The position numbers and the translations under genes were made by a program. A stretch of DNA of 64,000 bases from assembly GCA_000092065.1 (NCBI GenBank), contig CP000594.1. The stretch is one strand, 5' to 3'. Positions 638-64,000 of the stretch are shown in pieces. How positions within the stretch are numbered: the stretch's first letter is position 1; every line of letters starts with the position of its first letter. The notes below the pieces were generated by a model. The model was not told where the DNA came from and searched no databases. It saw only the letters and a program-made list of their open reading frames with translations. The stretch is from Ostreococcus lucimarinus (taxonomy: Eukaryota).

Positions 638-723
638 AATCAGATCACGAACAAACGCACGAACGCACGAATAGATGACACGCGCATGTAACATGAACGA
701 ACGAATACAACAAATTACAAACA

Positions 724-7450: not shown

Positions 7451-9610
7451 ATGGACGAGCGAGCGGCGCTGCTCTCGCGCGCGGTCGCGGACGCGGAGGA
7501 GCGGACGCGCGCGGAAACGCGCGGGCGCGCGCGCGCGCGAGGGAAAGATGGGAAAGTCTCGACGTCGCGATCGGACGACGACGACGACGCGGTGCTCGAA
7601 AGAAGCGCGGGACGGGGTCGACGGACGCGGGCGATGATGGTGACGATCGGACTGGCGTGCGCGGTGGGATTGGCGGCGCTCGGGGCGCGGACGCGCGGCG
7701 GAGACGGCGGACTTTTGGGCGGGCGCGGCGCGAGCGACGGCGCGGCGACGAAACGGGGCGAGCGCGGACGTTCGTCGCGCGCGAAGACTTCGACCGGGGG
7801 CGCGCGCGCGAGTGTGGATTTAACGGCGGAGACGGAGAGCCGGGAGGTTGTGCGCGTCGCGGGCGTGGAGGACTTCACGGCGAGCGATTCGCGATTGGCG
7901 GGTTACAGCAAGCTCGAGGTCGCGGACGCCATCAAGCACGCCGTGGAGTTTGTGAAGAAGGAGCAGTTGGAGGAAAAGCGACTTGAAGCGAAAACGTCGT
8001 CTGACGTGGGCGGGCTCGGCTCGGATGAGATCCCGGATGAGGATACCTGGGGCACGCCGATGCACCTGATGGCGAGACCGGGCGCGGCGAAGGACAGAGA
8101 CGCGCTCAAGGTGACGCTGAGCAAGCTGCTGACGACGCACGACGTTGAATTGGTGTCAAAGAACGTCAAAATCACCGCCAGTGTAAATCCGAAGAAATGG
8201 CCTGATGGCTTAGATCGCGCGGTGTACGCGCTCAAGTCGGTTTTTGAAATCCTCGGAGGCGACTACTTGCACCCGGATTTCTCCCTATTGAAAGGTTTGG
8301 ACTGGATCGAAGCGCCGAACTCGCGTGATTTAGACGGTAAGATCGCCGGTGCATGGGGCGCGCTCTCTAATCACGTCGGCACACTCTTCGGTCACATGTA
8401 CCAGTGGCAGCTCGCCAAGGATTCGATGAACAAGGCCACCATCATCGTCGACAGCGACGGCCTCGCGCCGACAAAGCTCGGGGTGCCGGTGTCGTCGTTC
8501 GGGGCCATCATAGACAACGTGCCGGCGGAGTACGATATCATCTTACTCAACACTTATCCCGATGTCGAGAACTCGCACACGGTCGCGGAATTTCCCGATC
8601 ACAGAGGGCACGACCTCAAGCTCACAACTTGGAAATCGCCCGGGCACACCGGCTTGAGCACTTACATAATCTCGTCGTCGTTCCCGGATAGAGTGTTCGC
8701 GTACGCCGCACAGAAGGGTGCGGGCTACTTAGACTCTTGGATTGTCGATGATTTGTGCACTCGTAAAGTATGCGATGACGATGGAGAAATTGTCGGCATG
8801 GGCGCAATCACGGCGAGCCAGCCTTTGCTGCGATGCTACCGAGCACACGGGGTCATTGAAACGCATCACGACAAGCAGAGCGACCAAGCGACGACTGTGA
8901 TCGCTGAGAACGTGGAAGCAAACACGACCACTGTGCTAGCGACTGGTAAGTTGGTTGGCGATCACAAACACGCGACGAAGGAAGACGACAAACCGGGCAA
9001 GGCCAAGGGGGTGTCTGACGACTCGCTCAAGAAAGTCATGGACGAGACTTTGGACGAAGACTCTGAGCGGCGTGCCAGTCAGAAGAAGTCTTCACACCAT
9101 GACAACGACTCCGATCATTCGTCGAAGGAGTCTTCGAACAAGGATTCCGACGCCGACGCGAAAAAATCAAAGCACGCGCATGTCCACGAAGCCGCTGCGC
9201 TCGAGGCGAGTCTCGGCGTGACGCCCTTTGCTCGCGAGTCTCACGCGACGAAGCCGACCGGGTTAACGAGCGATTTCATCTTCGATTCAATGCACGAGCT
9301 CAACGCTGAGCATGGATCTTTGATTCACAAGAAGTTTTCCTTGTTGCACAAGCATCAGCACGAGCGCGAGCGCGTTGAGGCGATGATAAAGCGTCTTCAT
9401 GACCTGAGGGCGTCGGGCAAGGAGGCGACAGCTCAGGACATCTTGAGCGCGGTACCGACGGAGGAAGAACCGATCGCGGAACCGATCGTAGAACCCATCG
9501 CCGTGGTGCCTCAGAGCGTGGTAGAGCCGGCGCGCAAAGAAGAATTCGAGGCGAAGAAGCCGGCGCCCGAGGCTGACGCAGAAGTCGGCAACTTTCTGAC
9601 GGGGCTCTGA
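7451..9610 (+). CDS. Hypothetical type-II membrane protein (N-terminal TM anchor MMVTIGLACAVGLAALG, large globular region, acidic/Lys-rich low-complexity tail); function unknown. Noticeably lower GC than its neighbours.
   Basis: Long clean ORF with protein-like composition and no family recognised by eye. The start may be the internal ATG ~7634 just before the TM segment. Stop at 9608-9610. Confidence 0.5.
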   Translation: MDERAALLSRAVADAEERTRAETRGRARARGKDGKVSTSRSDDDDDAVLERSAGRGRRTRAMMVTIGLACAVGLAALGARTRGGDGGLLGGRGASDGAATKRGERGRSSRAKTSTGGARASVDLTAETESREVVRVAGVEDFTASDSRLAGYSKLEVADAIKHAVEFVKKEQLEEKRLEAKTSSDVGGLGSDEIPDEDTWGTPMHLMARPGAAKDRDALKVTLSKLLTTHDVELVSKNVKITASVNPKKWPDGLDRAVYALKSVFEILGGDYLHPDFSLLKGLDWIEAPNSRDLDGKIAGAWGALSNHVGTLFGHMYQWQLAKDSMNKATIIVDSDGLAPTKLGVPVSSFGAIIDNVPAEYDIILLNTYPDVENSHTVAEFPDHRGHDLKLTTWKSPGHTGLSTYIISSSFPDRVFAYAAQKGAGYLDSWIVDDLCTRKVCDDDGEIVGMGAITASQPLLRCYRAHGVIETHHDKQSDQATTVIAENVEANTTTVLATGKLVGDHKHATKEDDKPGKAKGVSDDSLKKVMDETLDEDSERRASQKKSSHHDNDSDHSSKESSNKDSDADAKKSKHAHVHEAAALEASLGVTPFARESHATKPTGLTSDFIFDSMHELNAEHGSLIHKKFSLLHKHQHERERVEAMIKRLHDLRASGKEATAQDILSAVPTEEEPIAEPIVEPIAVVPQSVVEPARKEEFEAKKPAPEADAEVGNFLTGL

Positions 9611-9783: not shown

Positions 9784-11028
9784 TTACGCGGCCGCACGAA
9801 GAGCTTCGAGCTTGGCCTTGAGGTTGGCCTTCTTCTCTTCGTACGTGAGCTTCGGAAGCTTGAACAGACGCCCAGCGTCCGCCGGCTTCACGCGTTCCTT
9901 CTTCTCGTGGACGGGGTCTTCGCGAATGGCATCGAGGACGTCCTCCATGGCGTCTTCGAGCTCAGTCGGGTCGAAGTCCGCGGCCAAGTACTTGGCAAAC
10001 TGCTGTTCGAACTTTTCCGGTTCCTCCTCTTGCAGCTCTTCCGCGTACTCGGCGACAACACCACCCTTGATGTATCGCTCGAGAGTGTCCGGATCGTGGG
10101 ACTTGTCTTGGAGATCGTACCCAGCGAATCGCTTTTCGTTGTGCGGAATGTCCAACCCGCCGTCCACCGCACCCTTGAGCGCAGCGAACACTCGCGCGCC
10201 GGTCGACGTTCGCACCAAACCGGTGTCCAAGAAGCACTTGAACGGGCGCGCTTCCTCATCACCTTGTTCAACGTGGTAATCCTCCCCGAGGTCCTCCGTC
10301 TTACCCTCGTACGCATCCGCCAAGCCGTACTTCGTCAACAGTCGTCGCGCGCACAGCAACCCGGTCGCGTACGTCGCGGCGTAGTTCGTCAAACCCGCCT
10401 TCATCCCGTACTTCGGCAACTCGTGCGAGTACGCGGACGCGATGCACACGTCACCCGCGAGCGTGGCGTAGACAACTTGGCAAATCACATCGCGGTTCGT
10501 AAAGCGCACGACGAATCGGTACTTCGGCGAGTTGTACTTGTTCTTGTCCTGCGTGATCAAGCGCTGACGAGCGTAGTAATCCGTCTTGCCTGCGAGCGCG
10601 AAAACGTCCCGCGTCCAGCGCGAGCGCGTGATTTAAATCGTCAGTCCACACTCTGCGCGCTCGCACGCCCGCGCGCGCGTCGCGCGCGCGCTCGTTCGCG
10701 CCCGCGCGCGCGGTGCCGAAAAACCCTCGAGCGCGCCACCGCGCGGACATCGATGCGCCCCACGTCGCCGCGCCGCGCGCGCGCGCGATCGCACGCGTTC
10801 GAAACGAAGCATACGAATCATCCGCATCGAACGACGCGATCGACGCCGTCTCGACGGCGTCGACGCGTCGGTCGCGGCGCGATGATCGTCGCGCGATCGA
10901 GAAAGCCCTAAACGCGATGCCGAAGACGTACCAGCGCGGCGACGCGCGAACTTGACTTGGAAGCGCGAGAAGTACGCGTTGGTCTTCGCCACGGATTGGG
11001 ACTTGCGTTTGACTTTTCTGCGACCCAT
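9784..11028 (-). CDS. RPL5: 60S ribosomal protein L5 (uL18). Two exons: 11028..10932 and 10589..9784, with a 342-nt intron 10931..10590.
   Basis: Exon 1 encodes MGRRKVKRKSQSVAKTNAYFSRFQVKFARRRA+G and ends at donor GTACGT. Exon 2 begins after ...CTCGCAG and continues GKTDYYARQRLITQDKNKYNSPKYRFVVRFTNRDVICQVVYATLAGDVCIASAYSHELPKYG..., a canonical RPL5. Branch ACTGAC ~55 nt upstream of the 3' splice site. Total about 300 aa. Confidence 0.85.
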
Positions 11029-11504
11029 GGTTGCGTCGTGTGACACGCGAGGCGCGCGCGTCGAAAAGACGGAGCGCGACGGGCGGGGCGTGGCATCGTG
11101 CGCGCGAGGATGGTGTGGTCCGTGTTTGTAGTTTACGATTTTGTTCCAAAGGCGTACTGCTACAGGCGCTCGCGCACGACGACGGGCACCGTTCGCTCGC
11201 CCACGGGTTCGCCGCGAATGAAGAGCGGAATGTCGTACTCGCCGAAATCTACGATCGGGCGCTCGAGCATGAGCGCGCCAGGGGTAAGATTGAGGGATTT
11301 CTGACGTCGAATCTGGAGAGAGACGAAGGCGCGGCGGTGAGTCTTCGCGAGGGTAGAAATCAAACAAACGCCGGGTGTCGGCGGTGCTCGACGGTCGTCG
11401 TCGTCGGTGTCGTCGTCGCGTCAGAATAATGTCTCCTCACGGGTTATAGGCATGAATCCGTCCATTCAGACGGAGGCGCGATGCTATCAGGTGACAATTT
11501 CTCT

Positions 11505-11765
11505 TCACTCGCGAACGAAGACGAGACGAGACGAGATGAGAATCGAATCGACGGAGCGCGCGTCAGTCGAATCACGCACCTCTTCAACGATATTTTCCCG
11601 CGTCACCGCGATGCGAGGTTTCCCAGTTTTCTTGTCCTTAATTCTTCTAAAAGCGATCGCCGGTTCCGCGGTGAGCATCTTCATCACCGTGGCGCGTTCC
11701 TGCGAGTACGTACGATCGTCGTCGGCGTCAGTCCTAGCGCCATTGGCGTTTTGATTCATCGTCAT
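11505..11765 (-). CDS. Small protein (86 aa), possibly signal recognition particle 9 kDa subunit (SRP9)-like.
   Basis: Lower-GC, protein-like ORF. The alignment to human SRP9 is weak and recalled from memory (TYSQERATVMKMLTAEPAIAFRRIKDKKTGKPRIAVTRENIVEEV vs [45 protein letters not shown]). Termini are uncertain. Confidence 0.3.
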   Translation of the reverse strand: MTMNQNANGARTDADDDRTYSQERATVMKMLTAEPAIAFRRIKDKKTGKPRIAVTRENIVEEVRDSTDARSVDSILISSRLVFVRE

Positions 11766-11945
11766 GATTGACGACGTGCGACGTTCGCGCGCCAGATACT
11801 TTGCTCAGACAGCCAAGGGAAACGTTTTGTAAACACCGGAGCCGAAACTCGAATCTTCAGAAACTCTAGTCCGTAGAAAGTTCCAGTCATCATCGCAGGC
11901 GTATCAAATGCCTCGACTTCGTCAGCGTCGTCATCACGGCGACGG

Positions 11946-12455
11946 CTACTCGATCATTTCTCCCATCGCGTCGCTACGTACCTTGCGTTTGTGTTCCTCC
12001 TCTTGCGCCGTCGCCGCGGCTTCGTCTCCGTCCTCCCCCCCCGCCTCGATTCGCGCCCTCTCCCGCGCCGCCAACCGCTCGCGCGCCGCCGCTAACTTCT
12101 CCGCATTCACATACGTCGCCAACTTCCCCGGCACGAGATGATTCCTCGCCCGTCCCGGCCGCACGTGCGCGACCTCGTCGACGTCGCCGAGCCCGCTCAC
12201 CGGCGCCCTCAGAATCACCTCCACCCTCCGGTTCGCCTTCTTCCACCACCGCCGCTCGACGCGCATCGACGCCGGCATCACCCCAGCCTCCCCCACGCGC
12301 GCGCTCGCGCTCGACGCGATCGACAGCGCGCGCGCGCGCCCCGGCACCGTCGAACCTCCCGTCGGCGCGCGCGCCTCCACCGCGCGCTCGCCGAGCGCCC
12401 GCGCGAGCGCGCGCGTCGCGCGTCGCGTCGCGTCGCGCGCGCGCGGTCCCCACAT
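11946..12455 (-). CDS. Organellar ribosomal protein bL9 (N-terminal domain type) with a presequence.
   Basis: VEVILRAPVSGLGDVDEVAHVRPGRARNHLVPGKLATYVNAEKL matches the bL9 N-domain ([36 protein letters not shown]...). Preceded by an Arg/Ala-rich targeting-like N-terminus. The start codon is uncertain. Confidence 0.5.
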   Translation of the reverse strand: MWGPRARDATRRATRALARALGERAVEARAPTGGSTVPGRARALSIASSASARVGEAGVMPASMRVERRWWKKANRRVEVILRAPVSGLGDVDEVAHVRPGRARNHLVPGKLATYVNAEKLAAARERLAARERARIEAGGEDGDEAAATAQEEEHKRKVRSDAMGEMIE

Positions 12456-12834
12456 CGCGCGTCACGCGTTCGTCGCGCGCGCCGTCGCCGTCGCGCGCGC
12501 CGTCGTCGTCGCGCTCTGCCGCCGCGCGCGCCGATCGACCCACCGATCGATTCGTTTTCAATCGAACCTCGAGCGAGGTTCGCTCGCGCGCGCTCGATCG
12601 ACGATCGTCGATCGACTCCGGGGCGTCGAACGCGGCCTCGCGGGGGCAGAGCGCGACGACGCCGCGCGCGCGATCCGTCTCTTTGCGACGCGCGAAAGCC
12701 GACGCTCTTTCGAGATGCCGACGAGGTGCGGGCGATGAAACGGCGAGCGATGCGATGCGTTCGATCGGGCGCGACGTCGCGGCGCGCGCGCGGTCGCGCG
12801 CGCGACGGGAGGGGCGAACGCGGCGTGGGACGCG

Positions 12835-13596
12835 ATGGCGAGCCCTAGCGATCGGTGTGCGGCGTGGACGCGCCCGGGCGAGCGGCGCGAACGCGCGCGG
12901 GCGCTCGCGCGCGCGCGGTTGGGCGTGCGGGATTGCGATGCGTCGTTTCGAGGCGCGCGCGGGCGGGCGTGCGGGGGAGACGCGCGCGTTCGACGCGCGC
13001 GTTCGGCGCGTTCGGAGGCTTTAGGGTTTTTAGGAGGACTCGACGCGGGACGCGTCGCGGAGCGCGCGGCGCGGTGGTTCGCGCGATGGCGCGAGAGCGA
13101 TGGAAAAACTTCGGAGAATCGTCGACTGACCGAGGACGTGTGTTTGTTTGCGCGCGCGATTAGGTTGCATAAGAACCGCAAGAAGCGCGGGCACGTGTCC
13201 GCGGGTCACGGCCGTATCGGTAAGCACCGCAAGCACCCGGCGGGTCGCGGTATGGCGGGTGGTCAACACCATCACAGAATTATGATGGATAAGTATCACC
13301 CGGGTTACTTCGGTAAGGTTGGTATGCGTCACTTCCACAAGCTCAAGAACCACTACCACTGCCCGACCATCAACATTGACAAGCTTTGGACGCTCGTCGG
13401 CGAGGAGAAGCGTGAGGAGTGCGCCAAGAACACGTCTCAAGCGCCGGTGATTGATCTCACTGATCACGGTATCTTCAAGCTTCTCGGTAAGGGTCAACTC
13501 CCGAGCCAACCGGTCGTGGTGAAGTGCCGTTACATTAGCAAACTCGCCGAAAAGAAGATCAAGGATGTCGGCGGCGCGTGCATTCTCACCGCGTAA
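12835..13596 (+). CDS. RPL27A: 60S ribosomal protein L27a (uL15). Proposed micro-exon 1 at 12835..12854 (ATG GCG AGC CCT AGC GAT CG) spliced to exon 2 at 13164..13596.
   Basis: Exon 2 encodes (R)[78 protein letters not shown]...[24 protein letters not shown], a canonical L27a. There is no in-frame ATG directly upstream. A candidate 20-nt first exon ends at donor GTGTGC (12855). Branch ACTGAC at 13125-13130. 3' splice site TAG at 13161-13163. The join gives a 150-aa protein. The exon-1 assignment is inferred. Confidence 0.75.
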
Positions 13597-23258: not shown

Positions 23259-24968
23259 TCAGAGCGAGTACACCGCGGCGGTGGCGGGATCCGGTAATAA
23301 GTCATCGTTGTTCCACATCGCGTCGTCGAGCTCTTCGTCGGATAAGTTGGCGTCGCCGGGACGCTTCATGCGAACCGACGTGCGCGCGCTCAGATTTTGA
23401 TGCACGGGTCGCAAGGTGAGGTAGAGGAGGGTCGCGATGTATACGCCGAGCATGCTGAAGATGATGAGACCTAAGAACACACCCGCGAAAGAGCCCCACA
23501 CGAGCTTAGACTCGACGATGGCCGTGGAGATCAAAATCACGTTGGCGCCGATGATTCCGCCGGAGAGCCAGATGGTGTAACGCAACCGCTTCGCCGACAC
23601 CGCCATGGGACCCATGATTCGCTCGCTCGCGGTGAACTTGATGAGGGGAATCAGCGCATACGGGAGCTGTATCGCTAAAATTGTTGATGATATCACGATC
23701 AAGGACTCGGAGTACTTATCGCCAGCGGCCAAAACGACGATTAAAGACGGCACGATGGCGCACATGCGCGTCACAAACGCTCGAAGCACCGGGTTGACAC
23801 GAAGCTCCAAGAACCCATCCATGACGAACTGACCGGCATACGTTCCAGTAATAGTGGAACTTTGCCCCGACGCGAGCAGCGCGGCGGCGAAGAAACCTTT
23901 CGCCGCCGTGCCGAGCACCTCCTTCAACATTTGCGGCGCGTACTGCAACGGACGCTCGCGCACCTGGCGCATTTCCTCCGGATCGGTCAAGTGCGCGTAA
24001 TTCGACGCCGCGACGATGACGACGGCGAAGTTGATGAACAACGACACCGAGAGCGCCATCCCAGACTCGACGATATTGTACTTGTACGCCATCCTCAGAC
24101 TCTTTTCGCCTAAACTAAACCCGCGGCTCAACACCAGAGCGCTGTGCAAGAATAAATTATGCGGCATCACCACGGCGCCGACGAGAGATACGGCGATATA
24201 CAGCGCCTTGCTTCCCGGCAATCGAGGCAACACAATCCCCGCCACCACAGAGGACGCTTTCGCGTCCACAAACGTGACTTCAGCCAAGAAACACAACGAC
24301 ATCACGCCGACGAGCGCCGCCATGAACGCCTCCAACTTTCGCACCCCGAACGACTGCAACCCCAAAAACACCATCGTCGACATCGACGTCAGCACCACTC
24401 CCACCCACGTGGGAATTCCAAATATCAATTTCAGCGCCAACGCCGTGCCGATGACCTCCGGAACATCGCTCGCGATGATCGCCAGTTCCGTCATCGCCCA
24501 CAGCGCGTACCGCGTCGGGTCCGGATACTCCTCCCGCATGCACCGCGCCAGGTCCCACCCCGTCGCCAGCGCCAGCCGTATCGTCAGACCTTGTATGTAC
24601 CACCCCCCCAGCGTCGCCCAGAGCAACACCCAGAGCAATTTATACCCGAACAGCGTTCCCGCCTGCAAGTCGCTCTCAAAGTTCCCCGGATCCACGTACG
24701 CGATGCACATCAAAAATCCCGGTCCCATGAACCGCCACAGCGTCTTCAGGTTGAACCGATGATCGTCGTCGTCCAGGCCCTCGATCTCGACCCCCGCCGC
24801 GGCGCGCCGCGCCCCGTCCTCGCCTTTCGCGCGCGCGCCGTCGCCGCGCGCGTGCCATCGCGTCCCCGTCCCCGCCGTCGTCGTCCCGCCGTCGTCGTCG
24901 CCCTCGTGCGACCGCGCGGCGCGCGCGGCGCCGTCGAGCACCGGCGCGTCGTCGCGGTCGTCCTCCAT
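23259..24968 (-). CDS. NRAMP: NRAMP-family divalent metal (Mn2+/Fe2+) transporter.
   Basis: MGPGFLMCIAYVDPGNFESDLQAGTLFGYKLLWVLLWATLGG... (DPGN motif) and multiple TM segments throughout. ATG at 24968 checked. Confidence 0.9.
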   Translation of the reverse strand: MEDDRDDAPVLDGAARAARSHEGDDDGGTTTAGTGTRWHARGDGARAKGEDGARRAAAGVEIEGLDDDDHRFNLKTLWRFMGPGFLMCIAYVDPGNFESDLQAGTLFGYKLLWVLLWATLGGWYIQGLTIRLALATGWDLARCMREEYPDPTRYALWAMTELAIIASDVPEVIGTALALKLIFGIPTWVGVVLTSMSTMVFLGLQSFGVRKLEAFMAALVGVMSLCFLAEVTFVDAKASSVVAGIVLPRLPGSKALYIAVSLVGAVVMPHNLFLHSALVLSRGFSLGEKSLRMAYKYNIVESGMALSVSLFINFAVVIVAASNYAHLTDPEEMRQVRERPLQYAPQMLKEVLGTAAKGFFAAALLASGQSSTITGTYAGQFVMDGFLELRVNPVLRAFVTRMCAIVPSLIVVLAAGDKYSESLIVISSTILAIQLPYALIPLIKFTASERIMGPMAVSAKRLRYTIWLSGGIIGANVILISTAIVESKLVWGSFAGVFLGLIIFSMLGVYIATLLYLTLRPVHQNLSARTSVRMKRPGDANLSDEELDDAMWNNDDLLPDPATAAVYSL

Positions 24969-25634
24969 CGCGCGCGCGCGTCGGCGCGCCGTCGCGGTGT
25001 CGCGCCGCGGTGTCGCGCCCGCGGTCTCGTCCCGAGCCTACAACACGGACGACTCGCACACCTCGACGCGCGCGACGCCGCCGCGCGACGCCGCACACGC
25101 GCGCGCGCCGCGCGCGGACCTCGCGCGCGACGTTCCTCGCGCGCGCGGCGTCCCGAAGCGCGCGCGCGATCGCGCGACGCGACGCGACGGCGACCGAACG
25201 CGATCGGTTCGCGCTTTGAATCGTCGCGACGACGACGATGTCGACGTCGCCGACGCGACGATCCTCGCGACGAGGCGCGCCGACGCCCGACGGCGAGACG
25301 ATGGACGATGGAGGCGGAATCGCGCGCGACGCGCGCGCGGCGGCGTCGCGGGCGAACGTGAAGGTGCGATTCGATTTCGGAAACCTTTTGAGAATTTGAA
25401 TTTCGGACGGCGACCGACGCCGAGCGGAGGCGCGCGCGGATCGAGGATCGAGCGAGGCGCGCGATCGGCGCGCGGCGGAGACGGCGGTGGACGACGGGCG
25501 CGAAAGCGCGGGCGCGATGGGGCGGCGCGCGGGAGGGATCGGACGGGCGGGGAAGACTGACGGCGACGCGCGCTCGAAATCGACAGGTCGAGACGGAGGA
25601 GGGGAAGGAGGACGCGCTGGGACGAGGACGGCGG

Positions 25635-32454: not shown

Positions 32455-33730
<1,276 letters not shown>

Positions 33731-39737: not shown

Positions 39738-40503
39738 CTATTTCGCGTGCGCGGTGAGCCATTTCAGGCACACGTCGATGTTTGTGGAATTCTTGCAACT
39801 CACGTTGTAGCAGCACACCTCCCTCCCGGTCGCGCGTTTCAGCTCCATCGCCTCCACCACGTCCTGCACGCGCACCGCGCTCTCTAAATCGCTCTTATTC
39901 CCGAGCACCAACAACGGAATCTCCCGCAGCGTCTCCCTCTTGAGCAACCCGTGCAGCTCGTTCCTCGCCGTCTCAAACAATTCCTTCGCCGCCGCATCCA
40001 CGACGTACACCACGCAATCCACGCCTCGACAGTACCGTTCCCACGTTCCCCGAAACCGTTCCTGTCCACCGAGATCCCACGTCTTCACGCTCACCCCATC
40101 CCTACGCAGTCTCCGCACGTTGAATCCCACCGTCGGAATCATATCCTCCTCAAACGTCCCGCCGCTCAGCGCGTCGATGAACGACGTCTTCCCGGCGTTC
40201 TGCAGCCCTGCGCGCGCGCGTTCGCGAAACGTCTTCGTCAGTCCCCGCGCGCGCGTCCCCGCGCCGTCCTCGCGCGCGATCGAATTCGTTTCGTCGCGAT
40301 TCAAATCAAAGTCCGACGCAACCGCCATCTTAAATCGCTCTCGCGCGCGCCGCGTCTCGCGCGCCGCGTCTCGCGCGTCGCCTCGCGTCGTCGTCGGCGT
40401 CGCTCGACGCACCGATCACGACGATCTCCATCTCGCGTCCGAAGAACAGCGCGCGCAACCACGCGACGAAGGCGTCCCAGTACGAGCGCGCGTCGTCGCC
40501 CAT
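39738..40503 (-). CDS. ARL8: ARF-like small GTPase ARL8. Two exons: 40503..40413 and 40207..39738, with a 205-nt intron 40412..40208. 186 aa.
   Basis: Exon 1 encodes MGDDARSYWDAFVAWLRALFFGREMEIVVI+G with donor GTGCGT. Exon 2 encodes (G)LQNAGKTSFIDALSGGTFEEDMIPTVGFNVRRLRRDGVSVKTWDLGGQERFRGTWERYCRGVDCVVYVVDAAA...LGNKSDL...CCYNVSCKNSTNIDVCLKWLTAHAK. It matches human ARL8 end to end and the length is identical (186 aa). Branch GGGGACTGACGAAGA. 3' splice site GCAG. Confidence 0.85.
40208..40412 (-). other. Spliceosomal intron of ARL8 (GTGCGT...GGACTGACGAAGA...GCGCAG). It exemplifies the window-wide intron signature.
   Basis: Removing it restores a 186-aa ARL8 identical in length to human ARL8. 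The other introns I mapped are 10590-10931 (RPL5), 12855-13163 (RPL27a), 33460-33556 (ADH3), 40721-40791 (Pcc1), 45358-45528 (MYB), 47820-48207 (ARID) and 50176-50280 (Tudor-SN). Confidence 0.8.
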
Positions 40504-40682
40504 CGCGCGTCGAGGTGTGAGGGGGACGACCGCGCGGCATCGCGAGACATTACGCGCCGCGCCGACGCGCGTGCATGGATCCCGCGAGACCGTTTTCGAC
40601 GTGCGTGAGAGAAACTCGCGCGACGCGCGCGATGCGACGTCGCGCGCGACGCGGCGGCGCGGGCGCGCGACGCGGCGGCGCG

Positions 40683-41047
40683 ATGGATGACGATCGATTT
40701 GAGATTTCGCGAGCTGTCGAGTGATTAAAAATAAAACGACGACGCGAAGACGCGGACGCGCGACTGACGAGGGCGAGGGCGAGGCGAACAGGACGGTGGT
40801 CGTGCCGCTCGAGGACGAGAGACGCGCGAGGGCCGTGGGAGGGGCGCTCGGGGTGGATAAGGAGTTGCAACCGAGGGTGGTGCGAAAGACGGTGACGACG
40901 CGCGAGAGGGAGAACGGGGACGGTTGGGAGGTCGTCGCGACGTTCGAGGCGAGCGAGTTGAAGGCGCTGAGGAGTGCGGTGAGTGGGTATTACGATTTGT
41001 TGACGGTGAGCGTGCGGACGGTGGAGGCGTTCGAGGAGGAGATTTGA
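40683..41047 (+). CDS. PCC1: KEOPS/EKC complex subunit Pcc1 (LAGE3-like), about 97 aa. Proposed exons 40683..40720 and 40792..41047.
   Basis: VVVPLEDERRARAVGGALGVDKELQPRVVRKTVTTRERENGDGWEVVATFEASELKALRSAVSGYYDLLTVSVRTVEAFE parallels LAGE3/Pcc1 (LSVPFPTPLEAEIAHGSLAPDAEPHQRVVGKDLTVSGRILVVRWKAEDCRLLRISVINFLDQLSLVVRTMQRF). An upstream in-frame stop and the lack of an ATG imply a short first exon (MDDDRFEISRAV + GA) with a weak donor GTGATT. Branch ACTGAC at 40763-40768. 3' splice site ACAG. Exon 1 is tentative. Confidence 0.5.
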
Positions 41048-45147: not shown

Positions 45148-46446
45148 ATGCCTCGAGATCACACCCGCGACGCCAAGCCGTGGACCGCGGAGGAAGATGC
45201 AGCGTTGTTGACGCTACAAGGCGCGCATGGGAACAGATGGAGCGAGATCGCGCGCGCGATGGGCACTCGGAGTGGACAACAGTGCGCACAGCGGTGGCGA
45301 CACAAGGTCAACCCAGGGATCCGACGGGAGCGGTGGAGCGAGGAGGAGGATGAAAAGGTGCGAATGCGGTCGATAACGTGAGCAAATGATATTGGTTACA
45401 TGCGTTGTGTGCGCAGAACACAATTTTGGTCGCGTGGCGGGAGAGATATCGTCGAGTGGTCCCGCGCGGTCCCGCGTCGTCTCAAACGATTTGACTGACG
45501 AAGAGAGCGATTTGATTTGACGTGACAGTTGAAGACACTGAAAGAGCGCTACGGGTCGAGATGGGCAACGATCGCGCGTGAAATGGGTGGTCGCACGGAT
45601 CAGCAATGTATGGGACGGTGGAGACGACATCTCGATCCGACAGTGACTCGCGGCGCGTGGGCTCGGGACGAAGACGAGCTCTTGTGCGGGTTGTACGACG
45701 AGTACGGTCCGCGATGGTCATTCATCTGTCAGAGCGTTCCGGGTCGCACCGCGCAACAATGTCGCGCGCGATGGTTTCAAGTCGACGGTAAGCCCAGGGA
45801 AGAGCGCGATCATCGCCCGTCCAGGCGGCAATCGCCCGTCGAGACTTCATCTCATGGACCCGCGGAGGATCATCCAGCGCGGCGATTTTCCGATCATGAA
45901 GGGTTGGTGACGCGTACTTCGATCGATTCGATGCCCATGGCGAGTCTGTCGCCAACACCAGTCGCTGAAAAACGACCATTCAGTCACATTCTGGCCGAAG
46001 TCAGCGCGCGCACGACGCAAAAGACTGGATCGTTAATAGAATCCGCCTCCATAGCGACTGCGCTCGGGCGCGCTTCGCCGGCGACTCTCTCAAAGCGCAA
46101 ACAAGTATCGACAGCGCTGGATCCGATGTCGCTTTGGCGCGACGTCGGCGGTACGAAAGCCGTCGGTAGCTTGGCGCCGACACTCGTGGAAGATGGTAAG
46201 CGCAAACGCGGACGCCCGTCGAAGACGGTGGACGCGCCGCGGTCGCCGATGGCGAGGCTTTCGGTACAATCTCCTCGCGCATCATCGGTGTATGCACCGC
46301 GAACGCGCGCGCGAGCGTCGACGGCATCTGCATCATCCAAATCTACGCCTCATTCGTCAGTGATTGGTCGATCGACAGAAGAGGATAAACTCTCCGTTTT
46401 GCTCGGCGTCGCGCTCGGTCGAAGCGACGGCGCGGCGCCGCGTTGA
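45148..46446 (+). CDS. R1R2R3-type (3R) MYB transcription factor. Two exons: 45148..45357 and 45529..46446, with a 171-nt intron 45358..45528.
   Basis: Three SANT/Myb repeats with regularly spaced Trp: R1 KPWTAEEDAALLTLQGAHGNRWSEIARAMGTRSGQQCAQRWRHKVNP; R2 RERWSEEEDEK|LKTLKERYGSRWATIAREMGGRTDQQCMGRWRRHLDP spanning the intron; R3 RGAWARDEDELLCGLYDEYGPRWSFICQSVPGRTAQQCRARWFQV. Donor GTGCGA. Branch GACTGACGAAGA. 3' splice site GACAG. Splicing restores the R2 repeat exactly. Confidence 0.8.
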
Positions 46447-46484
46447 ATCGGCTAGGGAAAAATAATGTTGGTTTGCTGCTCGTG

Positions 46485-46489
46485 TTGTA
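46485..46489 (+). terminator. TGTAA putative poly(A) signal, about 40 nt after the MYB stop codon.
   Basis: The motif is in the sequence. Confidence 0.35.
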
Positions 46490-46497
46490 ACGACAAA

Positions 46498-47274
46498 CTA
46501 CGAAGAGAAAAACGTTTTTATGAGCGCTGGATTCGGGAGTCGATAGCTACGCCGCGACGCACTCGAGGAGCGCTTGAAAGTCCGCCTCCTCGTTCGCGTC
46601 GGGGAGGGCGTCAAAGCGCGCGTCGTCGAGCCACGCGAAATCGTCGATGTCAATCCCATCGAGGTCATCTTGACTTTCTGAATGAATCCCCGATTCTGAT
46701 TCCGCGCCGCGGGCGAGGTCGCCGTCCAGGCTCCCGAGCGCGCCCTCGACGTCGTCCGAGTTCGCGCTCGGCGAGTTCGCCCGTCGTCGTCGTTTGCGGT
46801 TGGCATATTCATCGCGCTTTTCTCGCCGGCGCGTGGCTCGTCCCCGCGCGTCGCTCCAAACGGGCCCTCTCCGACGCGTCGACGAGACGAATCCCTTCGT
46901 CTCCTCTTCGCGTCTTCGATAGCCCTCGCGACGCGCGCGAGTTCCGAGCGCGTAGTCCGGCTTCGCGACCGCGTATAATCCGCCCCCGACGACGACGGCG
47001 TCCGCGCCGGCGTCCGCTCCCCATCGCTCGCGCGCGACGACGCCACCCTTCCGTCCCATCCCGCGCGCCGCTCGCGCGTCAGCTCCGACAGCGCGTCCTT
47101 CAGCACCGCGTTCTCCGTCGCGAGCGCGCGCGTCAACCGCTCGAGCGCGTCCACGCGTCGCCGCGCGTCCCGCTCGAGCGCCCGCTTCCGCGCCCGCGAC
47201 GCCGCGCTCGCCGCGCGATTCGCCTCGAGTCGACGCGCGCGTCGCGTCGCGTCGTCCGCGTCGCGCGTCGCCAT
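46498..47274 (-). CDS. bZIP transcription factor. The 3' structure is unresolved: an acidic activation-like tail is open in another frame at 46547..47059.
   Basis: Basic region plus leucine zipper RRARRLEANRAASAASRARKRALERDARRRVDALERLTRALATENAVLKDALSEL (N-x2-AA-x2-SR-x-RK signature, heptad Leu). The alternative frame ends ...DLDGIDIDDFAWLDDARFDALPDANEEADFQALLECVAA*. The start is assumed at ATG 47274. Confidence 0.4.
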   Translation of the reverse strand: MATRDADDATRRARRLEANRAASAASRARKRALERDARRRVDALERLTRALATENAVLKDALSELTRERRAGWDGRVASSRASDGERTPARTPSSSGADYTRSRSRTTRSELARVARAIEDAKRRRRDSSRRRVGEGPFGATRGDEPRAGEKSAMNMPTANDDDGRTRRARTRTTSRARSGAWTATSPAARNQNRGFIQKVKMTSMGLTSTISRGSTTRALTPSPTRTRRRTFKRSSSASRRSYRLPNPALIKTFFSS

Positions 47275-47717: not shown

Positions 47718-48627
47718 ATGGAGGCGACGACGACGACGACGACGACGGGCGCGGGAGAGCGCGACGAAGCGCGGCGATCGCTCGAAGCGCTCGGTGAACG
47801 CGAGTTTCTGGATGATTTGGTGCGCGGCGACGCTCGAACGCGCGAACGGGGACGGAATAGGGGATATTAAGAATGCGGACGCGCGAGGGCGATTGGCGCG
47901 CGGCGCGAGGGGCGGACGCGCGAAGCGCGCGACGAGGACGCGGGCGCGGCGACTGACGACGACGCGATCGACGGTGATTGGTTTTCGCGATAGATATTGA
48001 CGCTGAGGAAGGATCCGGCGCTCGCGCGAGAGGTTCCCGAGGGCGTGGGTGGGTGACGACGCGCGGCGCGAATCTCGTCGGAGCGGCGAATCGTCGCGAT
48101 TTCGGAGGCGCGCGCGGCGCGTTTGATTCGGCGCGGCGCGGACGAGCGATCGAGAGACTGACGACGAGGACGACGACGCTCGATCGCGAATCGCAGACTA
48201 CTCGCAGTTCCCGCAGCGCACGGTGAATGGTTTTAAACTGGATTTGTTTGGGTTGTATCACAACGTGTGCGCGCGGGGAGGTTTTCCCGTGGAGACGAAT
48301 GGGTCGGCGAGCAAGGTGCCGTGGTCGTGGAGCAAGGAAATTTTCAAGGGCATGGCGAACTGGACGGACAACCATCGGTGCACGTCGGTGGGGCACGATT
48401 TAATCTGCAGCTATCGCAAGTACTTGCTCGCGTACGAGCAGGCGCACCCGGAGGACGTCGACACGAGCGGCGCGCCCGTGGACGCGAACGCGGTGCCGCG
48501 CGGCGAGCAGACGATTCGAACGCGCGTGGCGACTGGCGCGCCGCAACGACGACGCGCGGGCGAAGGCGGCGCGGGAGGGAGTGGACGCGGGCGCGGACGG
48601 CCGCGCAATCCCGACGGCGGCGGTGGA

Positions 48628-50091: not shown

Positions 50092-52953
50092 ATGTCCACC
50101 GGATGGCTCCGAGGCGTCGTCAAAGCCGTCCCCAGCGGTGATCAAGTCATCATCGCCGCACCGTGCGCGCCAGGGGTGCGTTCGCGCGCCGTACCGACCG
50201 ATTTCGTCGCGCGATGTCGACGCGACGGTTGCCCGATCGCGCGAAACTGACCACTCTCGCGACGATTCTCGCGCTCGCAGGCCCCGCCCGGCGTCGAAAA
50301 AACGCTCACGCTCGCCGGTATCGTCGCGCCGCGTCTCGGTCGCCGCGACGGGTCGAGCGCGGACGAGGCGTTCGCGCGCGAGTCGAGGGCGTCGCTGCGG
50401 CGCGCGCTCGCGGGACGACGCGTGTCGTTTCGCGTCGAGTACGCGGTGGAGTCGATAAATCGCGAGTTCGGCGTCGTGTTCACGGAGAGCGGGGAAAACG
50501 TGAGCGTGATGCAAGTGTCTAAGGGGCTGGCCAAGGTGAAGGCGCCCGGGGGGAACGATCGAGCGGTGGCGAACGCGGAGGAGTTGGAACGACGCGAACT
50601 CGAGGCGCGAGAAGCCGAGGCGGGGATGTGGAGTAAGGATCCCGCGGTGCTCGCGGCGGCGAGTCAGCGAACGGTCGTGCAGGCGATGAAAGCGGAGGAC
50701 GTGCTGGGTGCGTTGCGGATGAAACCGACGCCCGCGGTGGTGGATTACGTGCTGAACGGTGGGACGGTGAAGCTTGTGCTGACGGGGGACGGCGCGACGC
50801 GCGATCAGAATATCACGTTGTCTATCGGTGGGATTTCAGTGCCGTCCGTCGGGCGCAAGGGGGCGAAGAACGAAGATGGGACAGATCAAGGTCCAGAGCC
50901 GTTCGCGCTCGCGGCGAAGCATTTCACGGAGATGGCGCTCCTGCATCGAGACGTGCGGGTGATTTTGGAAGGTCTCGATCGTCGTAATAATTTCATCGGT
51001 TCAATCTTGCCCGCGGACGTGAACGATACGTCGTTCGTGAACGTCGGCGAAGAGTTGTGTCGGCTAGGTCTCGCGCAAGTGCACGAGGCGAGTGCGGCGG
51101 CGTTGATCGGTGGCGCGGCGACGCTTCGCGCGGCGGAGAAGATGGCCAAGGATCAGCAGTTGCGACTTTGGCATGGATACGTCCCGCCAATATCTTCCTT
51201 GAACGCGATGACGACGAAAGTCTTCGATGCCAGAGTAGTAGAAGTCATCAGCGGTGATTGCATTTCCGTGGTGCCGACGTCAGGGCCGGATACGTCTGAG
51301 AGACGAATCAATCTGTCGTCGATTCGGGCGCCTAGAATTTCCAACTCACGAGATGACAAGTCCAATCACGAACCTTGGGCGATAGAGGCAAAAGAGTTTT
51401 TGATCTCGCGTCTGATCGGGCGCACCGTATCGATTAATATGGATTACGCACGCAAGATTGGAGAAGGTGCGAACGAACGAACGTTGCACTTCGCCACGGT
51501 GAAGCTGCCAAACAACAAGACGGGCGGTGACCCGCTCAACGTTTCAGAGATGCTTCTCATGCGCGGTTTCGCGTCGTGCATTCGTCACCGTTCTGAGGAA
51601 GAACGTGCGGCAGACTACGATGAGCTCATCGCGGCGGAAAAGAAGGGCGTGGAGAGCAAAAAGGGAATGCACAACAAGAATCGCGAGGCGCCTGTACACA
51701 GGACGAATGATTTTAGCATCAACGCGCATAAGGCGAAGACGTTTTTGCCGTTTTTGCAACGCGCGGGTAAGTGCGTCGCTATGGTAGACTACGTCGCCGC
51801 TGGACACAAAATTCGAGTTTCAATTCCCAAAGAAGGCGCGGTGATCGCCTTTTGCTTGGCGGGCGTTCGCTGTCCCCAGCGCGACGAGCCGTACGCCGCC
51901 GAGGCGTTGGCGTACACGCGTTCTCGAATTCTTCAGCGAGAGGTGGAAATCGTGGTAGACTCCGTGGATAGAACTGGAATTTTCCTTGGCACCTTATTTG
52001 CGGACAACGGGCGATTAAATCTCGGTGAAGAACTCCTTCGAGCCGGATTAGGAAGCTTGCACCCGGCGTTCCCGGTGGATCGCGTTCACTACGGTCGCGC
52101 GCTCGCGGACATTGAAGCCGCGGCACGGGAAGTCAAGGCTGGTTTATGGAAAGACTGGACCCCTCCGATCGTCGAAGTAGACGGGCCTGAGGATAGTTCG
52201 ACCGGCGAACTCGTGCGAGTCGGCGTCACCGAGTGCGTCGCCGGGGGCCGATTCTTCGTGCAGAAGTTAGATGGGAGTAAGATTCAAGAGGTCACGGACA
52301 AACTCGCCGAGCTTTACGACGGCGTGGACACGAGCAAGCCGCACGATGGCGTGTTCGAACCAAAGCCTGGCGATGCCGTCGCCGCCAAGTTCACCGGAGA
52401 TGACAAGTGGGCGAGAGCCATCGTCACCGCGAAGCGCGTCGGTGATAAGCCCGTCAGCGTCTTCTACTGCGACTTTGGCAACGTCGAGGACATCGGTTTC
52501 AATCGTCTTCGACCTTTGAAGGATCCAACGGTCACCACAGTTGCTATCCCACCCATGGCCAACTTCTGCGCGCTTTCCTTCCTCAAGATTCCTCGCATCG
52601 ATTCCGATTACGGCTACGCCGCCGCTTCGCACGTCGGCAAACTCATCTCTGGCCAGGCTTTCCACGCCCGAATCGACGCCCGCGATCGTTTCCCCACCAC
52701 AAAACCATGGGAAATCGACGCACAGCCCGCGTTCTCGCTCACATTATTCCCCGACGCCAACGCTCGCGCCGCTGAATCCGTCGCCCTCGACCTCCTTCGC
52801 GCCGGCTTTGCGCGCGTCCACCGCCGCGCCGCCGCCCGTCGTCTCGATCGCGACGTCTTCGACGCCATGGTCGACGCCCAGGAGTCCGCGCGTCGCGCGA
52901 GGGTCGGTCAGTGGGAGTACGGCGACGTCGATTCCGACGACGACGCGTCTTAG
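50092..52953 (+). CDS. SND1: Tudor-SN (SND1): four staphylococcal-nuclease-like domains plus a Tudor domain. Two exons: 50092..50175 and 50281..52953, with a 105-nt intron 50176..50280.
   Basis: Exon 1 MSTGWLRGVVKAVPSGDQVIIAAPCAPG matches the SND1 N-terminus (RGIVKMVLSGCAIIVRG...). Donor GTGCGT. Branch ACTGAC at 50247-50252. 3' splice site GCAG. Exon 2 starts APPGVEKTLTLAGIVAPRLGRR...DEAFARESRASLRRALAGRRVSFRVEY... and includes the Tudor segment KPGDAVAAKFTGDDKWARAIVTAKRVGDKPVSVFYCDFGNVEDI. Stop TAG at 52951-52953. Confidence 0.85.
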
Positions 52954-61210: not shown

Positions 61211-62103
61211 TTAAAGCGCCGTCGGGCGCCCACCGTCGACGCCGTCGCTCGACGCCTCGGCGGAGGCGCTCAAAAACCCTTGCGCCCACGCCTCGTCGCG
61301 ACTCCATCCGTCCTTTCCAGATGAAATCGAATTCACCGCCGTGGGCTTGGGTTCAGACGTGTACGACGGTCTAGCGCTCTCGACGCGCGAACCGACGGCG
61401 TCGAGAAGATCGTTCGCCCACGGCGCGCCCGGCATCACTCCCGACAGATTGGGATCGGCGAAGTGGGTCTCATCTTTCGGAGCCACCACGTACTCTCCCA
61501 ATCGACGCTTGATCGCGTTCAGAGCCATCTCCGCTCGAAGCGTGCGCTTTTCAAGTCTTCTGTTCTCCGCGTTCAAGCTGAGCACTTCGCGCTCGAGCGA
61601 AAAGTCGTCCACGAGCATCTTCGCGCGCTCTAAGTGCATTTGCTCCACCTTCGCCCGCAACCGCTTGCGGTCGGCGCGCGCGGGCCAACCGAGAACCAAA
61701 TTCCCAAAAAAAGCGCCGAAAAACCCACCCTTCATCACCCGTCGCGTCTCCGGCTTGAGATTCATCCACTCCTTTCTAATCGGCTCCGTCACCGGCTTCA
61801 ACAAATTATTAATCTGCCTCGCCGTCGGCCCAAAGTGATCGACCGCCACGTTCATCGACGGCTGTATCAACTTCGCCTTCTCATTCATCTCCTTCGTCAC
61901 CACGTTCTGCGTCGACTGCGCCCACGTCGCCGTCGTCGCCGTCGCTCGTCTCGTCAGCTCGCTCGCCTTGTCGAACCACTTCCCCCACCCCCCGCCCTTG
62001 CCGTCGCCACCGCTCGCGCTCGTCGAGGCCCCACCGCTCGCGCTCTGCGCGCCGCTCGCGCCGTTCGGTTCCTTGATCGACCGCACCGCGCGTCCGCGCG
62101 CGC

Positions 62104-62317: not shown

Positions 62318-62596
62318 CGGCTCGGTCGGACGAGGACCGCTACACAGCGCAATTGGAGGTACTTTATGACCTCAGCGTTCATATTAGGACGGTGCGTGTA
62401 CCTATTTACCGGACGAGGACTGCGTCGTATCGGTAAACAGTGCGAGCGACTGACGCTTCAGTCGCGGTCGCGCGACGGACCCGTCGTCGCGCCGCGGCGC
62501 GCGCGACGGACCGCGAGCGAGGCGTCGTCCGTCGCTCGACGTCCGCGCGGCGTTCGCGCGCGCGATCGAGGCGCGCGCGCGTCGCGACGGACGACG

Positions 62597-64000
62597 ATGG
62601 TGTTCGAGCGGTTGTTGGCGGACCAACTGAACGCGAGGCTCGGGCGCGTGCTCGAGGGCGTCGATCGCGACGACGTGCGCGTGGGCGTGCTGAACGGAGA
62701 CGTGCGGATACGGCGGGTGCGGGTGCGGGCGTCGGCGCTGACGAAGATATTGGACGAGCCGAGCGCGCGGGTGCGGTGCGGATTCGTGGACGAGCTGCGC
62801 GTGCGCGTGCCGTGGAGGAACTTGGGGAAGGAGGCGGTGCGAGTGACGTTTCACGGGGTGTACGTCGTGGGGGAGATCGATGTGAACGGAGACGACGAGG
62901 CGCGGGAGAGCGAGGAGGAGCGGAGGGAGAGACAGCGGGTGAAGGCGTTGAGGACGGCGCGCAGGGCGGCGGACGCGGCGGAGCGGGCGTGGTTGAAGTG
63001 GAATCCGGCGGTGAACGCGGAGGCTTTGGAGGCGGAGGACGGCAGGGAGAGCGCGCAGGATGGGGTGAGGAAGAGGAGCGCGATCGCTGGGCTCATCGAC
63101 GTCGCCCTGGCGAACGTTCTGATTGAAATTTCAAACGTGCACGTCAGAATCGAGGGCGAGTACGGAGCGGGCGTTCCGTGGGGAATGGGACTCGTGCTCG
63201 AACGCGTGTCGCTGACGACCGTTGGAGAAGATTTCGAAAATGACTTCAAAGTCGGCGGTTTCGCCGACAGTTTACGAAAGATGATTGCGTTAGAGCGCGT
63301 CGGCGTGTACGCCGATTTCAATTCGCCGTCAGTCGCGTCAGAGACGCCGGACGGTTGGCGAGGCATCCGCGAAGACCAATTCGTGCGGCAAATGTCCGCG
63401 GTCTTCAATACCGAGGTTGGCGAGCGCATGAAAGAAGGCACCAGCGGCGATGTCGTGATACCGCAATCGTACGTATTCGGACCGTTACGAGGAACGGCGA
63501 CGTACGCGAGAAGAGGTCACGCCGAGGACACCAACACGCCGCTGCATCAATTACGGATGGATATAAATTCTATTCAAATCAGCATCAAGTCAACGCAGCT
63601 TAAGGTGTTTTACAACATGTACTCCAATTTACGCACCAGTCGCGTGCGGTACACGTATGCGCATATACGCCCAAGGGTCGGCGTCAAAGGAAATGCGCGT
63701 TTATGGTGGCGTTTCGCGGGCGCCGGCGTTCAGATGCACGTCGACGAAATACGTAAACGGCGTGGATTGGACTTTAAATCTAGTGTTAGCGCTATGGTGC
63801 GCATAACTGAGGCTCGCCAGCGTTATATTCCTTTATACGTCAAGCATTTGCGCTCTGCACCGCCACCTCCAGAGTGTCTAATCGCCGAACGCGCCGAGCG
63901 ACGCAATAAGCTTTGGCCACCTAAACTGAAGATTGGGATGTCGACAGAAATTGATGAAATCGAAGAAGGTATTCCCCTGCAGAGTATTATTACTTTCCGA
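62597..64000 (+). CDS. VPS13: VPS13-like protein, N-terminal Chorein-N domain; 3'-partial (continues beyond the window end).
   Basis: MVFERLLADQLNARLGRVLEGVDRDDVRVGVLNGDVRIRRVRVRASALTKILDEPSARVRCGFVDELRVRVPWRNLGKEAVRVTFHGVYVV matches the VPS13 N-terminus (MVFESVVVDVLNRFLGDYV...IPWKNL...). The frame stays open to position 64000. Confidence 0.75.
   Translation, partial: MVFERLLADQLNARLGRVLEGVDRDDVRVGVLNGDVRIRRVRVRASALTKILDEPSARVRCGFVDELRVRVPWRNLGKEAVRVTFHGVYVVGEIDVNGDDEARESEEERRERQRVKALRTARRAADAAERAWLKWNPAVNAEALEAEDGRESAQDGVRKRSAIAGLIDVALANVLIEISNVHVRIEGEYGAGVPWGMGLVLERVSLTTVGEDFENDFKVGGFADSLRKMIALERVGVYADFNSPSVASETPDGWRGIREDQFVRQMSAVFNTEVGERMKEGTSGDVVIPQSYVFGPLRGTATYARRGHAEDTNTPLHQLRMDINSIQISIKSTQLKVFYNMYSNLRTSRVRYTYAHIRPRVGVKGNARLWWRFAGAGVQMHVDEIRKRRGLDFKSSVSAMVRITEARQRYIPLYVKHLRSAPPPPECLIAERAERRNKLWPPKLKIGMSTEIDEIEEGIPLQSIITFR

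Follow-up and report, generated by a model that had tools for sequence, protein, structure and literature searches.

The window analyzed here is a 64-kb stretch of the Ostreococcus lucimarinus genome (contig CP000594.1, assembly GCA_000092065.1; 61.7% GC) that carries genes for the ribosomal proteins RPL5 and RPL27a, an organellar ribosomal protein L9, a DIRP/LIN-9-like protein, class III alcohol dehydrogenase (ADH3), ARL8, Pcc1, MYB and ARID proteins, and Tudor-SN. An initial annotation of the sequence had proposed eight introns at this locus, all with a rigid, yeast-like set of splice signals; after corrections and the addition of three introns, our final set comprises 12 introns in these 10 genes (Table 1). 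The segments leave the mRNA exactly at the GT and AG given there, and they share a near-invariant donor, G/GTGCG(T) or GTACGT (slashes mark splice junctions), and a near-invariant (G)ACTGAC(G) located 18 to 51 nucleotides (nt) before the acceptor. The introns persist at the same sites and with the same signals in different Ostreococcus lineages, with interiors that diverge freely. They are almost certainly ordinary U2-type GT-AG introns, of the canonical class found in the high-GC, intron-poor bulk of the O. lucimarinus genome outside the low-GC half of chromosome 2.

Direct evidence for splicing comes from look-ups of exact proteins, which returned contigs from public sequencing runs (Logan) and from one JGI sample; we infer that these contigs are RNA-derived from their precise loss of GT-AG segments at 99 to 100% identity. 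Run SRR847308 was the source of a contig 100% identical to the window. Seven introns are precisely removed in contigs 99 to 100% identical to the window, namely, those of RPL5 (contigs L008 to L013), MYB (L007), ARL8 (L014 to L017), Pcc1 (L014), and ADH3 (L122 and L123, 99.5% identity), along with both introns of L9 (L010 and L011). For MYB, RPL5, ARL8, and ADH3, the missing segment begins with GT and ends with AG in each case. For seven genes, the spliced product is identical to a protein from O. lucimarinus CCE9901, MMETSP, or Logan (Table 1). Among these, the spliced RPL5, ADH3, ARL8, and Tudor-SN products are identical over their full length to GenBank proteins of strain CCE9901, and therefore these four introns are annotated ones in the published genome. 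Counted by intron, support comes from transcript-type contigs or a transcriptome open reading frame (ORF) for eight of the 12 and from GenBank gene models for two, and it is purely comparative for the two ARID introns (A and B). Protein sequence is conserved across all eight junctions of the earlier list (e.g., FARRRA/G/KTDYYAR in RPL5, CHTDAYT/LGGHD in ADH3, and EIVVI/G/LQNAGKT in ARL8). Five of the eight intervals proposed there (RPL5, ADH3, ARL8, MYB, and Tudor-SN) proved exact, and those of RPL27a, Pcc1, and ARID had to be redrawn.

The signals are uniform across the set. All 12 introns have GT-AG boundaries, in agreement with the initial annotation, in which all eight segments ran from GT to AG on the coding strand with ACTGAC near the 3′ end. 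Nine donors read GTGCG, two GTACG, and one GTGGG; G occupies position +5 in every intron and position −1 in 11 of them. The branch motif is ACTGAC in 11 introns and extends to GACTGAC in 10, with GACTGACG at the branch position in nine, and the median distance from the branch A to the acceptor is 30 nt. Acceptors are GCAG (5), ACAG (4), CCAG (1), ATAG (1), and TTAG (1). Both strands of the window together hold 27 copies of ACTGAC, 12 of which lie in intron sense sequence, although such sequence makes up 2.1% of strand-nucleotides (binomial P = 8e-14); 11 copies fall within the last 62 nt of an intron, compared with 0.09 expected. In the window as a whole, GACTGACG occurs 16 times versus 4.1 ± 1.7 in first-order Markov simulations, and plain ACTGAC is only mildly enriched (27 versus 19.5 ± 3.8 simulated). 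The introns range from 97 to 438 nt in length and from 53 to 76% in GC content. The proposal that they are GC richer than the exons holds for the pooled sequence (66.0% versus 60.9% for host coding sequence, with CGCG tetramers 3.2 times denser in introns) but not for every member: the introns of MYB (53%) and L9 (intron 1, 53%; intron 2, 57%) lie below exon GC.

Table 1. Introns and associated features of the window. Slashes mark splice junctions; distance is from branch A to acceptor; products are spliced proteins (aa, amino acids) with their exact matches.
Feature	Coordinates	Strand	Length (nt)	Phase	Donor	Branch word	Distance (nt)	Acceptor	Spliced product (exact match)
RPL5 intron	10590..10931	-	342	1	CTG/GTACGTCT	GGACTGACGA	51	CGCAG/GCA	300 aa (XP_001421418)
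Organellar L9 intron 2	11313..11579	-	267		GAG/GTGCGTGA			CTCTCTCCAG/ATT	
Box C/D snoRNA-like element inside L9 intron 2	11416..11514	-	~99						
Organellar L9 intron 1	11700..11981	-	282		AAG/GTACGTAG	GGACTGACGC	28	CGCAG/GAA	
RPL27a intron, corrected	12726..13163	+	438	2	GAG/GTGCGGGC	CGACTGACCG	34	GATTAG/GTT	147 aa (XP_001421232/XP_001421267)
DIRP/LIN-9-like gene intron	25364..25586	+	223	0	AAG/GTGCGATT	AGACTGACGG	26	CGACAG/GTC	815 aa (P0331)
ADH3 intron	33460..33556	-	97	0	ACG/GTGCGCGC	GGACTGACGC	18	GAACAG/CTC	387 aa (XP_001421423)
ARL8 intron	40208..40412	-	205	1	TCG/GTGCGTCG	GGACTGACGA	30	GCGCAG/GGC	186 aa (XP_001421426)
Pcc1 intron, corrected	40601..40791	+	191	2	GAC/GTGCGTGA	CGACTGACGA	24	GAACAG/GAC	93 aa (P0316)
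MYB intron	45358..45528	+	171	0	AAG/GTGCGAAT	TGACTGACGA	30	TGACAG/TTG	
ARID intron A	47820..47993	+	174	0	TTG/GTGCGCGG	CGACTGACGA	37	CGATAG/ATA	
ARID micro-exon, inferred (ILTLRKDPALAREVPEGV + 1 nt)	47994..48048	+	55						
ARID intron B	48049..48196	+	148	1	TGG/GTGGGTGA	AGACTGACGA	35	ATCGCAG/ACT	
Tudor-SN intron	50176..50280	+	105	0	GGG/GTGCGTTC	AAACTGACC	30	CGCAG/GCC	918 aa (XP_001421245)

We compared the window with syntenic contigs from Ostreococcus-like lineages represented by L001 (78% protein identity), L004 to L006 (70%), and L117 to L121. Introns sit at identical positions in these lineages in MYB, ARID, Tudor-SN, RPL5, RPL27a, and L9. In L001, L004, and L117, their donors are GTGCG or GTACG, their branch motifs NCTGAC, and their acceptors YAG (Y, pyrimidine), with the exception of a TTGAC-type branch variant in ARID intron A of L004; intron interiors are unalignable. 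Thus, both position and signals of the MYB intron recur in L001 and L004, and L117 keeps the GTACGT donor of RPL5 and the RPL27a junction ATGCCGACGAG(A)/GTGCG. Intron content nonetheless varies among lineages. ARL8 has its intron in the L004 lineage and precisely lacks it in the L001 lineage (GTGATCGGGTTACAG; L001:100-240 compared with window positions 40208-40412). Tudor-SN carries a second intron in the L004 lineage, shortly downstream of the common one (GTGCGT...GCTGACGA...TTAG; L004:9480-9960 compared with window positions 50092-50400). The RPL27a intron is offset by 1 nt between the window (AG/GTGCGG...TTAG/G) and L117 (AGA/GTGCGTG...GCAG/TTG), with MPTR-LHKN encoded in both, which looks like a one-base intron slide.

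The Tudor-SN intron illustrates the common pattern. The segment reads ...CCAGGG/GTGCGTTCGC...GAAACTGACCACTCTCGCGACGATTCTCGCGCTCGCAG/GCCCCG; the frame before it encodes MSTGWLRGVVKAVPSGDQVIIAAPCAPG and the frame after it APPGVEKTLTLAGIVAPRLGRR.... Its length is a multiple of three, yet the TGA inside its ACTGAC is in frame, and read-through is therefore impossible. The curated Tudor-SN of Ostreococcus tauri has the identical junction (APAALG/APPGPEKTL), and the position and signals of the intron are kept in two further lineages (L001 and L004). A protein search with the spliced product returned metagenome proteins at 99, 78, 75, and 70% identity, followed by streptophytes at <40%; a cluster look-up placed the O. 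tauri protein in the 75%-identity cluster.

Revision of the RPL27a and Pcc1 models brought two donors into line with the others. The RPL27a intron had been drawn at 12855-13163 with a GTGTGC donor, but the exact match of the 147-amino-acid product (MPTRLHKN...) places the donor at 12726 (GTGCGG): the window reads ATG CCG ACG AG/GTGCGG at 12715-12731, with a coding exon 1 of 11 nt (12715-12725). RPL27a proteins of relatives are also 147 amino acids long, and the 150-amino-acid product of the earlier model has no exact match in the protein collection. For Pcc1, a donor GTGATT had been chosen (intron 40721-40791), and both that donor and its exon 1 turn out to fall inside the intron. In contig L014, which is 100% identical to the window, the junction is ...TTTTCGAC/GACGGTGG (in wider context, ...ATGGATCCCGCGAGACCGTTTTCGAC joined to GACGGTGGTC...), and therefore the intron spans 40601-40791 and its donor is GTGCGTGA (GTGCGTG). 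Coding exon 1 is 26 nt long (40575-40600), and the product is identical to a transcript-derived protein. The nonconsensus donors GTGTGC and GTGATT were thus errors rather than true variation, and the corrections of RPL27a, Pcc1, and ARID each bring the introns closer to the consensus. The prediction that some introns separate off tiny first exons is borne out by both genes.

The ARID gene had been assigned a single intron at 47820-48207. Its donor at 47820, where genomic ORFs read ...EFLDDL and then VRGD, stands, but the single-intron form probably does not; most likely, the gene has two introns, 47820-47993 and 48049-48196, around what is probably a conserved micro-exon of 55 nt. The 388-nt segment holds two ACTGAC motifs, the second of which is at the canonical distance from the intron A acceptor. 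Downstream of the micro-exon, the sole frame-keeping acceptor is 48196, and residues upstream of the earlier acceptor (..SQ/FPQRT) show protein-level conservation in a fourth lineage (P0173). In L001 and L004, the homologous region likewise consists of a pair of GT..AG units, both equipped with a branch motif, on either side of a 55-nt block with a related peptide. In a three-way alignment, conservation between the exons is confined to this block, and the flanking introns are unalignable; common to the three lineages are its 55-nt length, its AG/../GT flanks, and the peptide LRxDxxxxREVxEG. The two-intron model is in frame, and its Pfam ARID match is slightly better and longer than that of the one-intron model (30.0 versus 28.7 bits, beginning at profile position 17 versus 25). 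Against the JGI metagenome/metatranscriptome collection, the exact 28-mer across the micro-exon junction gave no hit; a looser pattern, designed to catch any spliced form, returned 99 loci, none of them resembling the window; and a search with the micro-exon-model protein returned genomic ORF fragments only. Exact look-ups in the protein collection matched neither the one-intron nor the two-intron form, and the public ARID gene model therefore probably differs from both.

Used as a search pattern, the consensus had been expected to reveal hidden exons, and it did so: it fixed the two donors described above and predicted the intron in the DIRP-like gene, which is new relative to the earlier list and whose spliced product equals an MMETSP transcriptome ORF. 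A loose scan for the donor-branch-acceptor triplet yielded ~40 candidates, most of them within intact ORFs. Those at 61916-62086(-), 24354-24699(-), 7657-8181(+), 8530/8701-9078(+), 36973-37431/37485(-), and 50439-50808(+) were rejected on the grounds that they lie inside uninterrupted long ORFs. Another, at 46343-46562(-), was discarded as it would create an exon that overlaps opposite-strand coding sequence of MYB, where contig L007 is collinear. The consensus scan also flagged candidates near 259-668(-), 49254/49332-49585(+), and 62675-63505. The remaining ACTGAC sites of the window are antisense to, or within, long ORFs and were not accepted as branch sites; the copy at 62449 was rejected as part of a small inverted repeat with an AG too near to serve as acceptor. 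This repeat (62440-62470, + strand; GCGACTGA-CGCT-TCAGTCGC) holds GACTGACG outside any intron context.

The L9 gene, located between RPL5 and RPL27a, contributes two introns that are new relative to the earlier list. The junction of intron 1 was read straight from contig L010. Contigs L010 and L011 carry the spliced form of intron 2, and L008 and L009 the retained form. Toward the 3′ end, this intron has a GACTCAC that lies 25 nt before the acceptor, as well as a pyrimidine (CT-rich) tract, and its ortholog in L117 has the canonical GACTGACC. Inside intron 2 lies a near-invariant element of ~99 nt that looks like a candidate box C/D small nucleolar RNA (snoRNA). In order, it comprises a stem UCGCG, GUGAAGA (GUGAUGA in L117), CUGA, UGAGGA, CUGA, and a stem CGCGA, which fits the structural features of the class (C box RUGAUGA, terminal D box CUGA, and end stem), with GUGAAGA as the C box in the window. 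The element is ~98% identical to its counterparts in L117 to L121, compared with ~72 to 90% for the flanking exons, and pairing in its terminal stem of 5 to 6 bp is kept by a double change from U-A to C-G. Rfam searches of the element at permissive thresholds gave only noise (SNORD57 at E = 8.3), and with gathering thresholds applied to the entire window, no small nuclear RNA (snRNA) or snoRNA family was detected. There is roughly an even chance that this uncatalogued candidate snoRNA and the 55-nt ARID micro-exon, which our searches encountered in no database protein, are new at the level of annotation.

In its main features, this signal set is already known. Using expressed sequence tags and the same GenBank assembly, Irimia and Roy (2008; PMC2483917) reported ACTGAC in 87.2% and GACTGACG in 66.5% of confirmed introns outside chromosome 2. 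In those introns, the donor GTGCGTG was atypical and scored 4.8 bits, acceptors favored CGCAG, and the branch point-to-AG distance peaked at ~20 to 35 nt. The window introns resemble these published non-chromosome-2 introns in donor, branch, acceptor, spacing, GC richness, and low number per gene; they deviate only by L9 intron 2 and one GTGGGT donor and in nothing of substance. The initial suggestion that yeast-like, rigid signals are typical of intron-poor picoalgae therefore agrees with an identical consensus published for O. lucimarinus itself (PMC2483917). For sister genera, Verhelst et al. (2013; PMC3879977) described a donor AG/GTGCGT and a branch NCTGAC in Micromonas RCC299 and CCMP1545. 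Canonical Micromonas introns are like the window introns in donor, branch, unique sequences, and location in the high-GC bulk of the genome (PMC3879977), but they belong to a different genus and carry the branch motif 43 to 52 nt before the acceptor. The 2008 paper thus already covers the consensus, its strength, the spacing, and how these introns differ from those of chromosome 2, and the extension to sister genera followed in 2013.

More distant comparisons delimit the class. Like the window introns, those of hemiascomycete yeasts (GTATGT ... TACTAAC ... YAG) occur in intron-poor genomes with near-invariant donor and branch, are enriched in ribosomal protein genes, and often lie near the 5′ end, where they leave tiny first exons. 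The words themselves differ, however (GTATGT versus GTGCGT, and ACTAAC versus ACTGAC), and the window introns are GC rich rather than AT rich; the resemblance is convergent, not inherited, and Irimia and Roy likewise discuss convergence with yeasts (PMC2483917). Introns of BOC1, the low-GC region of Ostreococcus chromosome 2, come from the same organism and presumably the same spliceosome, but they are 40 to 65 nt long and AT rich, with loose GTRNGT donors and no recognizable branch motif. Length, GC content, and the strict branch motif rule out this class for the window introns. U12-type introns, with a donor [AG]TATCCTT and a branch TCCTTAAC, can also be set aside, since no donor or branch word of the window resembles either.

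How such introns would be recognized can be outlined from general splicing biochemistry. The donor would be bound first by U1 and then by U6. ACTGAC would act as the branch site, bound by SF1/BBP and able to pair with the GUAGUA box of U2 (C-G, U-A, G.U, bulged A, and C-G), and the acceptor would be the first YAG that is suitably placed, a few tens of nucleotides past the branch. The rigidity of these signals has been attributed in the literature to the small number of introns per gene, which may favor convergence on a strict consensus.

Other explanations of the shared signals were considered. Micromonas introner elements (IE-A to IE-D) are also GT-AG spliceosomal introns, and the IE-C elements of Micromonas commoda share the branch word GACTGACG (PMC3879977); the window introns are moreover alike in their CG-rich composition, and a comparison with introner elements had been proposed for them. 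If they were copies of such a transposon-like family, full-length similarity among many copies, by which introner elements are defined, should be apparent, and the window introns share none: all-against-all BLAST of the 12 introns gave only CG-rich, low-complexity matches of 13 to 29 nt, with no sign of introner-element relatedness, and comparison of each intron with the 64-kb window gave no second copy. Most introns also occupy positions common to other Ostreococcus lineages with unalignable interiors, which indicates that they are old and unique, and we consider an introner-like origin highly improbable. It is even harder to maintain that the motifs co-occur by chance, or that the segments are retained and the gene models are artifacts of homology-guided stitching. 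It is true that the earlier list erred in two donors and one intron model, that GT, AG, and CTGAC are frequent in DNA of 62% GC, and that the loose scan returned mostly candidates inside ORFs. Against this stand the exact matches to GenBank and transcript-derived proteins, the precise deletions in near-identical contigs, the in-frame stops, and motif placement P values of 1e-13 to 1e-20; transcript-type contigs, the MMETSP ORF, and the GenBank matches refute chance or artifact for 10 of the 12 introns, with the ARID micro-exon model excepted, and for the set as a whole this explanation has next to no probability.

A lineage-specific change in the machinery, i.e., in the specificity of an snRNA or of SF1/BBP or through a second spliceosome, could also have produced uniform signals in place of selection on the introns. 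By our reading of the pairing rules, neither the G before ACTGAC nor the donor preference for +3G/+4C improves pairing with canonical U2 or U1, and Irimia and Roy raised the possibility of such a change (PMC2483917). However, a 2022 preprint found U1 with a standard pairing region in five Mamiellales (bioRxiv 10.1101/2022.06.08.495308), and therefore a compensating change in U1 does not account for the donor preference at +3 and +4. The snRNAs of O. tauri are reported as single copies only, and the chromosome-2 introns have loose signals in the same cell (PMC2483917). An Rfam scan of the window found no snRNA genes that would bear on the question. Altered machinery is thus unlikely, though less so than the preceding alternatives.

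Several points weigh against a reading of all 12 segments as canonical U2-type introns under a strict rule. The RNA origin of the Logan and JGI contigs is deduced from the precise deletions and not from sample records, and the role of ACTGAC as the putative branch site draws on its position and on analogy. Searches found no transcript contig for the ARID micro-exon and none for the Tudor-SN junction; the latter is supported by the gene models in GenBank and in O. tauri and by conservation. Finally, the rule is strong but admits one exception: L9 intron 2, alone among the 12, has no NCTGAC close to the 3′ end.

Two observations concern the surroundings of these genes. The stop codon of L9 and the start codon of RPL5 are ~130 nt apart (11031-11160), and assembled transcript-type contigs span RPL5 and L9 and, elsewhere, further neighboring genes, which indicates that adjacent transcription units overlap or are read through. 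In addition, identical RPL5, RPL27a, ARL8, and Tudor-SN proteins each have two GenBank accessions ~30 to 35 numbers apart (e.g., L5A/L5B and L27aA/L27aB), which indicates that the assembly holds a second copy of a large block including the window region; within the window itself there is no duplication. Lanier et al. (2008; PMC2367439) note that chromosome 21 is possibly a chimera formed from chromosomes 9 and 13, which would explain why several window proteins have two accessions.

The practical value of these results lies in annotation: for hidden first exons in compact algal genomes, the strict GTGCG...GACTGACG...YAG grammar outperforms homology-guided stitching. By the same grammar, an exception such as L9 intron 2 stands out as a site that encodes something else, here a snoRNA-like element. 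If that candidate is a true snoRNA, the degenerate branch of L9 intron 2 and its spliced and retained forms could mean that snoRNA production is linked to splicing efficiency.

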